Position numbers and translations under genes: made by a program
Origin: an uncultured Planctomycetaceae bacterium
Lineage (GTDB): Bacteria; Planctomycetota; Planctomycetia; Isosphaerales; Isosphaeraceae
Assembly (NCBI GenBank): GCA_963833985.1
Contig: CAWIAD010000002.1
Span: 2,304,001 to 2,368,000, forward strand
Direction: 5' to 3'
DNA: 64,000 bases
Shown here: one piece after another, positions 23,153-36,820 of the stretch
How the letters are laid out: every line of letters begins with the position of its first letter
Numbering within the stretch: position 1 is the stretch's first letter
The notes under the pieces: model-generated
Database searches by the model: none
What the model saw: the letters and a program-made list of their open reading frames with translations, nothing else
What the model was told of the DNA's origin: nothing

Positions 23153-23227
23153 GCGGAGGCTTCTTTCCCGGTTCTGAGTCACGCTCGCTGCCTGCCAAGT
23201 GTGCGCTTCACCCCGTCCGGAAGCCAG

Positions 23228-23271
23228 AAAAAAACGCCGCCCGGGATCTGGAGGAGATCCGGGGCGGCGTT
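23228..23271 (-). terminator. intrinsic terminator of the rRNA operon
   Basis: GC-rich hairpin aacgccgccc..ggatct / agatcc..gggcggcgtt followed by a U7 tract on the minus strand, just after 5S. Confidence 0.85.
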
Positions 23272-23280
23272 GTGAAAAGA

Positions 23281-23389
23281 TTCCGGCGATCACCGACTTT
23301 CGCGCCTGAGCACTATCATGGGCCCGGCGGGCTTAACGGCCGTGTTCGGAATGGGAACGGGTGTGACCCCGCCGGTATGGTCGCCGGAA
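23281..23389 (-). rRNA. rrf: 5S rRNA
   Basis: Minus strand ttccggcgaccataccggcggggtcacacccgttcccattccgaacacggccgttaagccc...gtcggtgatcgccggaa; the termini pair. Confidence 0.95.
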
Positions 23390-23629: not shown

Positions 23630-26432
<2,803 letters not shown>

Positions 26433-26825
26433 CGCCGATCGGACCTCCGGCTTCCGGAGAAGACGCAGGCCGACAGCGGGCTCACTCGGGTCCGGACCGT
26501 GCGGCCGCGGCGTCTCGCGACGCGACGGCCGGTGCCAGACCCATCGATTCGATCCGTAAGGGTTCGTTATCTTCTTCAGAGCCCCGACCGACGCGGATGG
26601 TTGGACTGACGTCGCCCCTTCCCACCGGCCAGAGCCGTGAAACTGTTCGTTGGAGAGTGCCACTCACCCTCGCGTCTCGCCGGCACGGCCAAAGCCTGCC
26701 GCCGATCACGCGGGTGTGTGTGAATTCCACCAGGTCCATGTAGGAACACAAGGCACGCAGCGACAAGATCGGAATCTTGCCCCACGCGCGGACCTGGCTG
26801 ATTCGTGTGTGACCAACCACCGAAT

Positions 26826-26856
26826 TGTCAAGGAACACGCGGCGGATTGCTCCGCC
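26826..26856 (-). promoter_or_regulatory. spacer boxB-like hairpin and boxA antitermination element
   Basis: Minus strand ggcgga-gcaa-tccgcc hairpin then gtgTTCCTTGACAAT; parallels the leader boxA GCTCTTTGACAAT. Confidence 0.7.
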
Positions 26857-26950
26857 ACTCCCGGCCAAGCTGCTGGCCAGGGGGCGAGGCCCTGCGACAA
26901 GGGCACCGCCCCGCGCCCAGAGGCGAGGGGAAAGAAATCTCGGTTGATTG

Positions 26951-27187
26951 CTACGGTCGTCCAGAACTCTTGGGCATCGTCTCGATCAGGGCCCGGAGCA
27001 GGCTGTTGACCGACTCCGCGGTGGTGAACACCTTGCTCACATCCGGGTCAAGGGCCACCACCAGCCGATCTCGATCGCTCGGGCTCGCAAACCGATTCGG
27101 CCGGGCTTGCGTGTAGTCAAACGCATACTCGGAACGAAGCTCGTCCGATGGCTCCAGCGGGCGGTCACCCACCTTGGTCTTCTTCAT
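26951..27187 (-). CDS. BrnA-like antitoxin (78 aa) inside the 16S-23S spacer
   Basis: MKKTK...DELRSEYAFDYTQARPNRFA...VVALDPDVSKVFTTAESVNSLLRALI, the typical partner of DUF497 toxins; overlaps the toxin 3' end by 23 nt. Confidence 0.85.
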   Translation of the reverse strand: MKKTKVGDRPLEPSDELRSEYAFDYTQARPNRFASPSDRDRLVVALDPDVSKVFTTAESVNSLLRALIETMPKSSGRP

Positions 27188-27455
27188 GGGCTGTACGTTC
27201 TTTCCGCGTCGCCGGCCGGGCACTGATGATCCGCACGAGGCCGGGGCCTCGCTCGGTAAAGTTCACGAGCAGCAGCCGGCGGAGAATCGAGTGGCCCACA
27301 AGGATCTCGCGCGTCTCCTCGATCGAATGGTCCTCATCATAAAAGATCCTGGCCAGCGGATCATCGAAGACGGTGGACGCCTCGTCGAAACCGACTCCAT
27401 GCCTGGTCAGGTTGGAGGCGGCCTTGACGGGGTCCCACTCGAATTTCAGAGCCAT
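27165..27455 (-). CDS. brnT: BrnT-family (DUF497) ribonuclease toxin inside the 16S-23S spacer
   Basis: FEWDPVKAASNLTRHGVGFDEASTVFDD...DEDHSIEETR...RIISARPATRKER; the whole family pattern is intact. Confidence 0.92.
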   Translation of the reverse strand: MALKFEWDPVKAASNLTRHGVGFDEASTVFDDPLARIFYDEDHSIEETREILVGHSILRRLLLVNFTERGPGLVRIISARPATRKERTAHEEDQGG

Positions 27456-27629
27456 CACGAAACGTCACAAGCCAACTGTGGTGCAAACCCCCAAGGGGAG
27501 CCGGCGGGCGTGCCGCGGGATCGAGGTCCGGGGATGGTGCCGACGTGGCCTTATCGAGTTCGGGAAGCGAAGCCTGGCGGCAACACTTCCTGGGTGAACT
27601 CTCAGGCCGGTTTTCCAAGGTTGTCCTTA

Positions 27630-29141
<1,512 letters not shown>

Positions 29142-29470
29142 AATGATGTCAACCCGCTTCGCAGAGCCCGAGAGCCCCGGCCGCGGATCAACCCTCACCT
29201 CGAAAGGTTGAGGAAAAAAAACTGGTCGCATCAAGCCCCTGGCAAGGCGGTTTCACAACCGTTCTGCCGGGAACTTGCTGCCGGTCCTGTGCAGGCCATC
29301 CCACGGCAGCCCAGGCGCTTCGGACCACGAAGGCCGGGCCGCCCCGAGGCTGCGGCCGCACGCCGGCTCCCCTCAAGGGTTTCTCACCACAGAACGGATG
29401 AATCTCATCCATCGTGTGCTTGCAATTCTCTTGCGTTCTCGTTTTCTGGCTGACGAGTGCAATCAACCGG

Positions 29471-29483
29471 ATTGTCAAAGAGC
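29471..29483 (-). promoter_or_regulatory. leader boxA
   Basis: Minus strand GCTCTTTGACAAT, similar to the boxA consensus TGCTCTTTAACA, between the promoter and 16S. Confidence 0.75.
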
Positions 29484-29630: not shown

Positions 29631-29685
29631 ATCATAAATCACCCCGGGCCGAAGGTCAACGGCCTGGATGCTTTTTTTTAAAATC
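29631..29685 (-). promoter_or_regulatory. rRNA operon sigma70 promoter with UP-like A tract
   Basis: TTGACC (29659-29654)-N17-TATGAT (29636-29631), with upstream ttttaaaaaaaa. Confidence 0.85.
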
Positions 29686-29845: not shown

Positions 29846-30888
29846 ATGTCGTGCAGGTGGCGGGCAATCGTTGCGGTCGGGTGCACGCTGGCCATGGCTG
29901 GTTGTGGGGGCGGCCGGTCGGAGCGTGGCAGCACCACGGCCCGATCGGCCGTGAAGCGCGTGCACCTGGTTGGGTTTGACGCCAGTGCTCCGGTGCTTGC
30001 GGCCTTGCGGGACGGATCCATTGACGGGGTCATCCTCCAGAACCCGGTGAAGATCGGCGAACTGGGTGTCCGGGCGCTGGTGGCGCATCTCGAGAGGCGT
30101 CCCGTGGAGTCGCGGATCACGACCGGGGAGACGCTCGTGACCTGGGAGAACATCGACCTGCCGGACACCCAGCCGCTCTTGAGCCAGCCCCCGGCCGAGG
30201 ATGATGCGGGGGGATCATCGGGTGGGAAGAAGAAATGGCGCGTCATGGTGATTCCGAAGGCAACGGCCACCGAGTACTGGGCGGCCATCCGCGCCGGGGC
30301 CAGAAAGGCGGAGCGCGAGCTGGAGAACGTCGAGGTGATCTGGCAGGGGCCCGACAAGGAAGACGACCGGGCCGAGCAGATCCAGATTGTGCAGAGTGCA
30401 CTCGCCGCGGGCGTGGACGGGATCGTGCTGGCACCGCTGGACCCGCGGCGCTGGCGCCGGCGGTGGACATGCTCGTTGCCAGGGGCATTCCCGTGGTCGT
30501 CATTGATTCCGGCCTGGATTCCCGCCGGCCGATCAGCGTGATCTCGACAGACAATTACCACGGTGGAGTGCTTGCGGCGCGCCAGCTCGGAGCATTGCTC
30601 GGGGGAGAGGGAAAGGTCATCCTGCTGCGGCACGCGGTAGGATCGGAGAGCACCGAGCGGCGCGAGAAGGGATTCATCGACACCCTTGCCAGCGACTTTC
30701 CCCGCATCACGCTCCTGTCCGAGTCCGAGTATGCCGGAGCGACCGAGGAGCAAGCCCAGCAAGCGGCCCGGACCCTGGTCTCGCGGTACGGCGGACAGTT
30801 GGACGGCGTGTTCTGCCCGAACGAGACGAGCACGCTGGGAATGATGCGCGCACTGCAAGAAGCCGGGTTGCTCCGGGCCCGGCGCTGA
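29846..30888 (+). CDS. circularly permuted RbsB-type sugar-binding lipoprotein (frameshift near 30445)
   Basis: Lipobox LAMAGC; the normally C-terminal block (LVGFDAS..QNPVKIGELGV..TGETLVTWEN) comes before the normally N-terminal block (VIPKA..YW..GVDGIVLAP..IDSG..TDNY..PNETST). Confidence 0.8.
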
Positions 30889-33850: not shown

Positions 33851-33947
33851 CAAGGAAGTGCCGTCGCGAATGCCCAGTCTCACTCACCGTAAACCAAAGC
33901 GGCGCCAATATCTCCGGCAGCATCGGGTCGTCCGGCGAGATCCGGTT

Positions 33948-35445
33948 ATGCCGCCGCCCGGCCGTACCGAAACGGTCACGGGACGGAAGATCGCCTCCAA
34001 TTTCGCGTTTCTCAGCCTGGCCGAACTGATCTGCCGAGCCACGTCGGTGATCGTGAGCCTGTCGCTGATGAAACGGCTGGGTGTGGTCGGTTACGGGCGA
34101 ATCGAGTTCGCCTTCAACGTGGTCTTCTGGCTGGTGCTCCTTGTTCGCGATAGCAGCGACGTGATCGTGGCGCGCGAACTCTCCCGGCATCCGCGGCTCA
34201 TCAGACCCCTGGTCGACCGCGTGCTGGCACTCAAGGGTCTCTTTTCGCTGGTTCTTTTCTCCGGTCTGACCGTGGTCGGCACGCTCACCTTGAAGGACAG
34301 CACGGACTGGCGGGTGCTGACCCTGTACGGACTTTTGCTGTTCACCACGGCGAGCGGGCTGGACTTCGTGTATCGCGGCACGGAATGCATGGGCTTGCTG
34401 GCGATCTCGCTGAGCTTGCGGACCTTCGTGTATGCCGCGGCAGTGCTTTCTTGGGTTACGGGGGCGACACAGATTGTCTGGGTGCCGATCTGGCTGGCCG
34501 TGGGCGAAGCCAGCGGGATTGCCCTGGTCTGGATGCACTACCTGTCGCGGCACCGCATGCCCCGGCCGAGACTCGGATTTCGGTTCCTCTCGATCATCAT
34601 CCAGCGCGGGCGCACTGTCTGTGTGATCCAGCTTTCGCAAGCCGTGATCAGCACGGCCGACCTGATGGTCGTGGGCCTTTTGAGGCTCGTGGTGGGACGT
34701 CGGACGCTACGGCGCCCCGCACCGCATGGTGACGGCGCTTTTGACCTTCGGGCTGATCTTCCAGCAGGCGGCGTTCCCCACCTTGTCAAGACTGTGGCGG
34801 CATACCGCGGAGGCCGGTCGCGAAGCGCTGGACTCGCTGGTCGAGGTGCTTGTCACCGCGCTCTTGCCCGTGGCGATCGGCACGACAGTGCTGGCGGAGT
34901 CTCTGGTCCGGCTGCTTCCAGAGGATTATGCCGGAGCGGGTCTCTTGCTGGCGCTTGGAATCTGGCGTGCGCCGCTGCTGATTCTTGCGTTCCTGTACCA
35001 GACCACGCTGATCGCACTGAATCGCGAGACGGTCGGTGTTCGCTCGTTGGTGCTTGCGGCGCTGGGTATCGGGCCGGTCGTCGCGCTTTTGCGCATTTAC
35101 GTGGGGCTGCCGGGGGCGGCCGCGGGCGTGATCTTGATCGCCCTGGCCCTGGTGGTTGCAGGCTACGCCAGTCTGGCACGCGAGGGGCGGCATCCCGCCT
35201 GGCACCATCACCTGGCTCGGCCACTGATTGCGTCGGCGGTGATGGTGCCGGTCTGCCTGGTTCTGGTGCGCTGGCACGTGCTGCTGGCGGTACTGGGTGG
35301 GGCGCTGGCTTACGTTCTGGTGCTGGTCAGCCTGGGCGGGCTGAATCGGACGCGGCTGTGGCGTTCCGCGCTGCATCCGACGGGTGTGCCTGTTCCGGCA
35401 GCGGCTGTGGCCTGTCCGGCCAGCAGTCCTCGAAGAGTACGTTGA
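33948..35445 (+). CDS. Wzx-like polysaccharide flippase (frameshift near 34685)
   Basis: IASNFAFLSLAELI..., LGVVGYG, many TM helices, ADLMVVGL, then GRYGAPHRMV and AFPTLSRL in the second frame. Confidence 0.82.
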
Positions 35446-35497
35446 GCAGAGCCGGCACGCAGGCAGTGATCGAGCGTTGCGCGACAGGAGGTCGCTG

Positions 35498-36820
35498 TTG
35501 AAATTCTGCATGGTCACCACGTTTTTCGGCGGTCATAGTTTCGGCGGCGACGCGGCCTATGTGGACCGGCTTTGCCAGGCACTCTGTCGACGTGGCCACG
35601 AGGTTCATGTCTACTACTGCGTGGACGCGTTCAGCGCCGTGCGCGGCACCCACCCGTTGCGCGAGTACACGCCCCATCCCGGCTTGCATTTGCATCCTCT
35701 GAAAAGCAGTTACGGCATCCTTTCTCCGCTGGCGACACAGGCGACGGGGCTGCCCTTGTTCAAGTCCCGGGCCCTGCGAGCGGCCCTTGACTGCCCAGAC
35801 ACCGACGTCGTGCATTTCCACAACATCTCCCTGGTGGGCGGACCAGGTGTGCTGGGCCTGGGGACGAACCGGCGTGCCGTCCGGATCATGACCGCACATG
35901 AGCACTGGCTGATCTGCCCCATGCATCTGCTCTGGAAATACGATCGCCGGCCCTGCGACGGCCCGAGTTGCGTTCGTTGCAGCCTGGCGGGGAGGCGGCC
36001 TCCGCAGGCCTGGCGCTTGACCGGGGCGATCGGCCGCGGTCTGCGGCAGCTTGACGGCCTGATCTTTCCCAGCCGGCATGCTCTGGAGGAGCACCGGAGA
36101 CGGGGCATCGGCGCGGAGGTGCCGCTGGTGCACCTGCCTTATTTCTTGCCCGACGACTGGTCGCAGGGAATCGAGGACGAGGAGCCCGAGCCAACCCGCC
36201 GGCCTTACCTGGCAGCCGCGGGACGGCTGGTGGCGATGAAAGGGTTTCAACGCCTGATTCCCATGATGAAGTACCTGCCGGAGGCCGACCTGCGGATTGC
36301 GGGCACCGGACCCTATGAACCGGCCCTGCGGGCGCTGGCTGAGGGATTGCCGAACGTGTTCTTCGAGGGACTGCTGGGCGGCGCCCGACTGGCCAGGCTT
36401 TTTCGGGGGGCGCGGGCCGTGGTGGTGCCATCGCTGTTTCCCGAAACCTTCGGTTACGTGGTGCTGGAGGCGTTCGCGGTGGGAACCCCCGTGGTGGTGC
36501 ACGAGGCCGGAGGGGCACTCCTGGAGACCGGCGTCCACAGTGGAGGTGGGCTGGGTTACCGGAATGACGGTGAGATGCTGCTGGCCCTGCGGCGGATGAT
36601 TCACGATGACGAGCTCCGCGCCGAGCTTGCGGCCCACGGTTTTGCTCAGCGGATCGGCGAATGGTCGGAGACCGAGCACATTCATCGTTACTTCGAGTGG
36701 ATTGGCCACTACCGCGAGATCCGGGGCGTTCCGGAGATTTACCGGCCGCATCGCGTGGGCACCGTCGCGGCCGAGTCGGAGCGGCCGCTGGCCAGCTTGC
36801 GGAGACCGCGGGACGCATGA
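35498..36820 (+). CDS. GT4 glycosyltransferase
   Basis: DVVHFHN, TAHEHWLICP, GRLVAMKG, VPSLFPETFGYVVLEAFAVGTPVV; RBS aggagg before the TTG start. Confidence 0.9.
   Translation: MKFCMVTTFFGGHSFGGDAAYVDRLCQALCRRGHEVHVYYCVDAFSAVRGTHPLREYTPHPGLHLHPLKSSYGILSPLATQATGLPLFKSRALRAALDCPDTDVVHFHNISLVGGPGVLGLGTNRRAVRIMTAHEHWLICPMHLLWKYDRRPCDGPSCVRCSLAGRRPPQAWRLTGAIGRGLRQLDGLIFPSRHALEEHRRRGIGAEVPLVHLPYFLPDDWSQGIEDEEPEPTRRPYLAAAGRLVAMKGFQRLIPMMKYLPEADLRIAGTGPYEPALRALAEGLPNVFFEGLLGGARLARLFRGARAVVVPSLFPETFGYVVLEAFAVGTPVVVHEAGGALLETGVHSGGGLGYRNDGEMLLALRRMIHDDELRAELAAHGFAQRIGEWSETEHIHRYFEWIGHYREIRGVPEIYRPHRVGTVAAESERPLASLRRPRDA

Follow-up and report, generated by a model that had tools for sequence, protein, structure and literature searches.

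A predicted BrnT-family toxin-antitoxin pair nested between the leader-trailer helices of planctomycete rRNA operons

The closest described toxin-antitoxin systems to the one analyzed here are BrnT/BrnA of Brucella abortus (PF04365/PF14384; BrnT structure 3u97) and the Salmonella complex 7vd7, with which it shares the toxin family, the fold, and the toxin-first gene order. According to the relevant part of a review, the RNase activity of Brucella BrnT requires residues D6, E7, K9, R41, and E78 (PMC5086665), and further background on BrnT is given in PMC11980606 and PMC10714953. Protein-coding genes within rRNA spacers are reported in CPR bacteria, where homing endonucleases are named as cargo and the genes lie, like ours, between 16S and 23S with the orientation of the rRNA (PMC8172020). 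In Escherichia coli, 30S assembly is described as needing the leader-trailer helices, which RNase III cuts (PMC10250234, PMC11404451). The same sources describe for canonical rrn operons the leader/trailer complementarity, the boxA before 16S and 23S, and the use of RNase III that we find or predict here, as well as spacer tRNAs released by processing, as the cargo of our locus would be. A survey of the open-access literature, mostly at the level of abstracts, returned no toxin-antitoxin pair in an rrn spacer.

The locus lies in an uncultured Planctomycetaceae bacterium of the family Isosphaeraceae (GCA_963833985.1). We call the window the whole stretch of 64,000 nucleotides that was analyzed (contig CAWIAD010000002.1, positions 2,304,001 to 2,368,000), and its relevant features are collected in Table 1. 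The motifs in the leader (29472..29483) and in the spacer (26825..26858) are presumably the boxA of the former and the boxB and boxA of the latter. Elsewhere in the window, a sugar-binding protein gene (29846-30888) and a flippase-like gene (33858-35501) each seem to be split by a frameshift, which may be an indel error of the assembly.

Table 1. Features of the rrn operon and its cargo in the window (all on the reverse strand)
Feature	Coordinates	Strand	Basis
16S rRNA gene	27631..29144	(-)	Rfam RF00177
23S rRNA gene	23630..26431	(-)	Rfam RF02541
5S rRNA gene	23281..23388	(-)	Rfam RF00001
16S-23S spacer	27630-26432	(-)	1199 nt
sigma70-type rrn promoter, TTGACC-17-TATGAT	29631..29659	(-)	promoter scan
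Leader boxA-like element	29472..29483	(-)	
5' arm of outer helix H2 (core 29469-29459)	29444..29469	(-)	inverted repeat I2, covariation
5' arm of inner leader-trailer helix H1, likely RNase III substrate	29361..29392	(-)	inverted repeats I1, I19; cofolding
3' arm of H1, left border of the cargo slot	27476..27506	(-)	inverted repeats, pairing, cofolding
BrnT-family ribonuclease toxin gene (predicted), 96 aa	27165..27455	(-)	PF04365, fold model, purifying selection
Predicted antitoxin gene, 78 aa	26951..27187	(-)	BrnT-linked family, modelled complex, purifying selection
3' arm of H2, right border of the slot	26941..26966	(-)	repeats, covariation, cofolding
Spacer boxB-like hairpin	26858-26839	(-)	conserved in genus
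Spacer boxA-like element	26836-26825	(-)	conserved in genus
Hairpin and U-run 3' of 5S, likely operon terminator	23227..23268	(-)	by eye

The host genome comprises 10.16 Mb in 2 contigs, is 96% complete, and has three rrn operons. An initial annotation, made from the letters of the window, had proposed to compare all rrn spacers of this genome, and the comparison revealed the same filled spacer in the three operons, with 100% identity. Their promoters and flanks differ, each operon having a sigma70-type promoter ~515 nt before 16S and a U-run hairpin 3' of 5S. The same annotation had seen neither a tRNA in the spacer, nor a terminator after 16S, a clear second promoter before 23S, or insertion sequence ends and a transposase, and our searches agree on all four counts. 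No tRNA was found in the window's spacer; tRNA-Ile(GAT) and tRNA-Ala(TGC) are located on the other contig of the host genome. The scan of the spacer for terminators found none from the 16S end to the toxin ATG; the two matches that it gave are a weak hairpin within the toxin gene and the boxB-like hairpin. A promoter scan for sigma70 types found no site within the spacer. Neither a transposase ORF nor a terminal repeat bounds the pair in the spacer, and its DNA matches are confined to the three rrn operons, which does not fit an insertion sequence or a transposon.

The single promoter, the leader-trailer helices, the boxA elements, and the terminator after 5S suggest a linked 16S-23S-5S operon. 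Unlinked rRNA genes are defined as those where >2000 bp or opposite-strand genes separate 16S and 23S (PMC8172020); here the genes are co-oriented and 1199 nt apart. That the arrangement is an assembly artefact, or that the 16S and 23S genes are unlinked, had been named by the initial annotation as what could overturn its reading, and both seem to us scarcely credible. A consensus over three identical spacers could mask an empty operon, but five further genomes and five metagenome contigs have the arrangement with diverged sequence, the three operons of the host have different flanks, and the operon in the window shows a single promoter, the two boxA-like elements, and a terminator after the 5S gene alone.

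As initially described, a full BrnT (DUF497) ORF starts about 175 nt past the end of 16S on the rRNA strand and overlaps a second ORF, both uninterrupted. Its product matches PF04365 with 87.2 bits (cut-off 34.5) over model positions 1-77 of 77; the start is an ATG at 27455, spacer position 176, with an in-frame GTG at 27458, and the two intact ORFs overlap by 23 nt. The structural model of the toxin (pLDDT 85) retrieved with Foldseek both 7vd7_A (TM 0.82, E 4.6e-8) and Brucella BrnT 3u97 (TM 0.65, E 1.5e-4). In the alignment, four of the five residues required for RNase activity in Brucella are kept (D8, K11, R49, and E86); the fifth, E7, is P9 in the window toxin, in a column that is variable across the family. 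Two other loci of this kind were seen in the host genome (G000): a BrnT-type gene with a frameshift next to a related antitoxin-like gene (C2:137100-137500), and a distant BrnT-like gene with a different small partner (C2:2632100-2632600).

The partner had been called BrnA-like. It is indeed a small overlapping gene, but the BrnA signature is weak: Pfam gives no PF14384 match at E<=1, NCBIfam and PADLOC give no relevant match, and searches of solved sequences, Foldseek, VIA-align, and the ESM Atlas provided no name for the family. We did not file the partner as BrnA because just 8 of 60 aligned relatives touch PF14384, and weakly (best E 0.0056). A transitive link to BrnA was also considered and rejected, since none of 14 further BrnT partners matches PF14384. 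One protein search returned 93 relatives of the partner, and among the best 80 of 306 GTDB loci 65 have BrnT directly upstream, in many phyla. Hence, the two small genes are coupled and recur together, as in type II toxin-antitoxin systems. Three of these best 80 loci are adjacent to rRNA genes, each with 97-98% 16S identity to the window. Judging from these homologies, the partner represents a BrnT-associated antitoxin-like family and not Pfam BrnA.

The monomer model of the partner (pLDDT 71) has two C-terminal helices, and fold searches with it were uninformative. The modelled 1:2 toxin-partner complex scored 0.66 and the best of 3 controls 0.00; of the solved complexes, 116 of 157 attain the mark set for this score, as do 2 of 215 mismatched pairs. 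At least 76% of the contacts agree between runs, with a partner pLDDT of at least 63, and residues 15-35 of the partner contact a toxin surface that includes K11 and E86. The model supports binding of the two proteins, although it may reflect likeness to solved BrnT complexes.

The pair is framed by two predicted helices that join the leader to the spacer. The inner one, H1, closes ~30 nt upstream of the toxin ATG, and the outer one, H2, closes at the antitoxin stop. In the window, the 3' arm of H2 overlaps the last codons and the stop of the antitoxin, and its 5' arm lies directly 3' of the leader boxA-like element. H1 was found in the 21 operons examined and H2 reliably in most of them, with a loop of 13-708 nt separating their spacer arms. 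The 12-bp core of H2 has 209 of 216 cells paired in 18 operons (G065, G105, and one duplicate were left out), against a mean of 196.7 after shuffling; none of 10,000 shuffles reached the observed value, a figure that is not a probability because the shuffle ignores kinship. In the 11 operons with loops >300 nt, 127 of 132 cells are paired (shuffled 118.6; 0 of 10,000). Two-sided changes are seen in column 9 (T-A, G-C, and A-T) and column 5 (mostly C-G, T-A, and G-C). The pairing was assessed by targeted pairing and cofolding, whole-length duplex folding being uninformative. Cofolding gave pair probabilities of 0.58-0.99 for H1 and 0.91-1.00 for H2 in nine out of nine operons, with a mean of 0.92 for H2 of the window.

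H2 brings RNA from before 16S together with RNA from behind the antitoxin, and its maintenance therefore implies that transcription reads through the pair. The initial annotation had deduced co-transcription from the layout of the spacer; the covarying helix that closes downstream of the antitoxin supports it, and we consider it very probable that the pair is transcribed from the rrn promoter. A rival explanation is that the pair is an independent cassette, with a promoter of its own (e.g., for an alternative sigma factor) and autoregulation, for which the spacer is merely a tolerated safe harbour. Brucella BrnTA is reported to bind and repress its own promoter (PMC5086665), and our promoter scan was restricted to sigma70 types. 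Moreover, the copy in G090, from another genus, is preceded by an A+T-rich leader of 89 nt that contains a TTGACC hexamer, and a -10-like hexamer lies just upstream in 10 of the 70 toxin starts found outside spacers. However, no sigma70-type site was found in the spacer of the window and no conserved upstream hexamer in the genus, where the ~30-40 nt that separate H1 from the ATG are partly paired with the leader. Besides, H2 requires read-through anyway, so the pair would still be within the far more abundant rRNA precursor. We thus regard this explanation as unlikely. Two motifs upstream of the toxin had drawn our attention. The TCAC found before several toxin copies of the genus is accounted for by its pairing with the leader, and a palindrome spotted by eye as a potential operator was dropped, as it is not conserved.

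If the pair is co-transcribed, its message would be released by processing of the helices. The host genome encodes RNase III and NusB, and cuts at the expected sites would yield a fragment of ~550-590 nt with both genes. In the seven filled operons analyzed, the 20 nt that lead up to the toxin start are predicted to be less accessible than their counterparts at the antitoxin start, and cofolding predicts that the toxin start of the window is paired. Neither gene of the window has a clear Shine-Dalgarno (-4.6 and -3.5 kcal/mol), nor do most toxin starts of the genus. Such a closed start is a plausible safeguard for a toxin-first pair behind a strong promoter. The weak Shine-Dalgarno sequences and the paired start would also suit a message that is transcribed but silent here, decaying untranslated with the spacer, in which case the constraint on the genes would belong to the past. 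We find this very improbable: the frames are intact in three copies, the dN/dS of the window is low relative to every relative tested, and many relatives outside spacers also lack a strong Shine-Dalgarno (25 of 70 below -6).

To study the distribution of the pair we searched the genus, the family, and metagenomes. Seven of the 13 other genomes of the genus gave an assembled spacer, and four of these (G002, G005, G007, and G009) have the pair at the site seen in the window, with an identity to the window of 63-76% for the toxin and 57-72% for the antitoxin. The spacers of G004 and G013 are empty, and in G010 a deletion fuses the first codons of the toxin to the last ones of the antitoxin (L037, spacer positions 143-234). 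G002 has two filled operons and one empty, and G005 has one of each. With such a patchy distribution, and with an empty operon beside the filled ones in G002 and G005, the pair is dispensable.

In the family, where at most three candidates were scored per genome, we obtained 80 spacers from 61 of 121 genomes, plus 14 spacers from the same genomes that showed no remnant. Six of the 61 genomes have the pair, and scars or remnants are seen in 5. Outside the genus, two operons of G090 hold an intact pair, whereas G067 has a decayed toxin, and antitoxin fragments are found in two operons of G051 and in one of three of G065. A similar antitoxin-like fragment, seen by eye in G024, is below profile detection. 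Hence, the examination of related spacers suggested in the initial annotation placed the pair at the same site in four species of the genus and in G090, with other spacers empty. No family spacer examined gave a tRNA, neither the 103 sequences (a number that counts duplicates) nor the 14 further ones. Among metagenomes, a spacer motif retrieved 20 loci: 5 hold the pair adjoining 16S and/or 23S, 6 are complete spacers without it, and 9 are incomplete or not linked to rRNA. The exact pattern from the 16S end to the toxin start was absent from 400 other genomes of the phylum, many of which may have no assembled rRNA. Two small-share DNA runs gave a 243-nt contig over the toxin-antitoxin overlap, with 8 differences, which we do not count as evidence, and no piece across any rRNA-gene junction.

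Several spacers hold other sequences. L135 keeps the 20 nt upstream of the toxin and neither of the genes. The slot of L044 (G024; spacer 170-720) has ~500 nt of A+T-rich DNA that begins with the antitoxin-like fragment. In L073 and L107 (G051), the antitoxin fragment is followed by a long G+C hairpin-like repeat element, and in L107 a few toxin codons are apparently fused to the antitoxin start. One slot of G065 (L287) contains short tandem repeats of ~14 nt, and another operon has the antitoxin remnant. The slots of L061, L085, and L087 (G108, G106, and G107) contain a TTGCAT/TTGCAA hexamer that may be part of an internal 23S promoter, followed in L061 by TAAGGT 17 nt further.

A different gene pair lies between the same helices in two operons of G088 (L065 and L106) and in G089 (L068:1743-2360). 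It encodes a 107-aa protein with CxxC motifs, for which we found 21 close relatives, and a 94-aa protein; neither is in a Pfam family. Both genes are under purifying selection (dN/dS ~0.07 and ~0.11), and they occur together at several non-rRNA sites of the family among the 15 loci examined. The second pair is possibly a new toxin-antitoxin family.

Both genes of the BrnT pair are under purifying selection. Compared to the window copy, dN/dS is 0.087-0.150 for the toxin (dS ~1-2; G090 saturated) and 0.167-0.261 for the antitoxin, in 10 comparisons each; among the other between-genome pairs listed it is 0.06-0.24, with most toxin values at 0.06-0.15. The constraint is weaker in three very close toxin pairs from metagenomes, which gave 0.28, 0.58 (3 changes), and 3 replacements with 0 silent changes. 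We left out the toxin of G009, which has two single-base insertions, one antitoxin of G007, which has a shifted stretch, and the antitoxin of L132, whose start was not found; the first two may be true decay or errors of sequencing. A tree of 63 concatenated pairs unites the 8 spacer pairs from the genus and metagenomes in one clade (bootstrap 96). The placement of the G090 pair is weak, and the AU test does not reject a single clade that joins it to the other 8 (p-AU 0.79). Best-hit tests of the remnants in other genera are mixed, and within the genus the support of host and cargo trees is too weak for a test of co-descent. These data suggest that one insertion in the ancestor of the genus is likely, and that one insertion for the whole family is possible.

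The patchiness and decay described above fit equally well a selfish passenger, i.e., a pair expressed from the rrn promoter without gain to the host and kept by gene conversion and by the lethality of losing the last copy. G002 and G005 each combine filled operons with an empty one while all three are filled in the host genome, and loss was repeated: the deletion in G010, the decayed toxin in G067, and the antitoxin fragments in G051 and G065. The BrnT-partner family is also found at unrelated sites over many phyla, and structural variants reportedly pass from one rrn operon to another by gene conversion (PMC3457768). The initial annotation had suggested spread by gene conversion, which suits the mixture of filled and empty operons inside single genomes; its idea that the module stabilises this rrn copy fits poorly, since all three copies are filled and relatives mix filled and empty ones. 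Yet, addiction gives little reason for an intact toxin over a dS of 1-2, where the toxin is the more constrained gene, the single clade of the genus copies suggests long residence, and the second, unrelated pair is likewise conserved in the slot. Overall, the long constraint on the toxin favours a use for the host, which could be dormancy or phage abortion, and the patchiness and repeated loss favour selfishness; we see a purely selfish passenger as a strong, though somewhat improbable, rival.

The reading we prefer, and hold with about even confidence, is that the BrnT toxin and its predicted antitoxin are made together with the rRNA precursor, such that a stop of rrn transcription would free the toxin. 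RNA polymerase from the rrn promoter would read through 16S and the pair, and processing of the helices, likely by RNase III, would free a two-gene message of ~550 nt. The structured toxin start, devoid of a clear Shine-Dalgarno, would hold the toxin below the antitoxin, whose N-terminal half would mask the active face of the toxin. As a part of the rRNA precursor, the pair would supply antitoxin in step with rRNA synthesis, and a halt of rRNA transcription would leave the toxin free. Gene conversion would copy the slot among operons and also empty it. It counts against such a switch that stress by itself often fails to release type II toxins.

The initial annotation had proposed a starvation switch. 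A trigger by the stringent response (ppGpp) is unlikely, because no (p)ppGpp synthetase domain was found in the host genome (96% complete), where two short sequences match the N-terminal part of RelA/SpoT, and few were found in the family (10 of 121 genomes), which agrees with the lack of RelA/SpoT described for planctomycetes (PMC3153485). The host genome also has three DksA/TraR-type zinc fingers. Acting by some path that bypasses ppGpp, the likely triggers would be any shut-off of rrn transcription, such as through phage takeover or a lack of nutrients or energy.

An mRNA, least of all one for an RNase that blocks translation, is hardly an expected product of a bacterial rRNA precursor. As filled, empty, and scarred operons are found side by side in one genus, the locus is a natural test of the long-argued question of whether chromosomal toxin-antitoxin pairs are selfish or control growth. 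It also suggests that gene conversion of rrn operons can carry protein-coding cargo, and it is a candidate link of translation to ribosome synthesis in planctomycetes, which are reported to be without RelA/SpoT proteins (PMC3153485). More speculatively, and we hold this to be rather doubtful, the slot in the 16S leader-trailer stalk may be reusable, with the precursor serving as messenger, the BrnT pair as a ppGpp-independent gauge of ribosome synthesis whose RNase would halt translation once starvation or phage takeover cuts off the antitoxin, and the second pair as a toxin-antitoxin family wired in a similar way.

In contrast to the Brucella and Salmonella systems, the partner in the window is outside PF14384, no sigma70 promoter of its own was found, and the genes lie within rRNA operons, in three copies. 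Canonical rrn operons differ in their spacer tRNAs, which are missing from the family spacers examined; here a loop of 13-708 nt, with room for an mRNA, interrupts the helix. The CPR spacer genes are described in small genomes with a single operon (PMC8172020), whereas the cargo of the window is a toxin-antitoxin pair in a multi-operon genome of 10 Mb, nested between leader-trailer helices, with empty alleles and measured selection. Relative to these systems, the locus is a real and conserved new arrangement of known parts.
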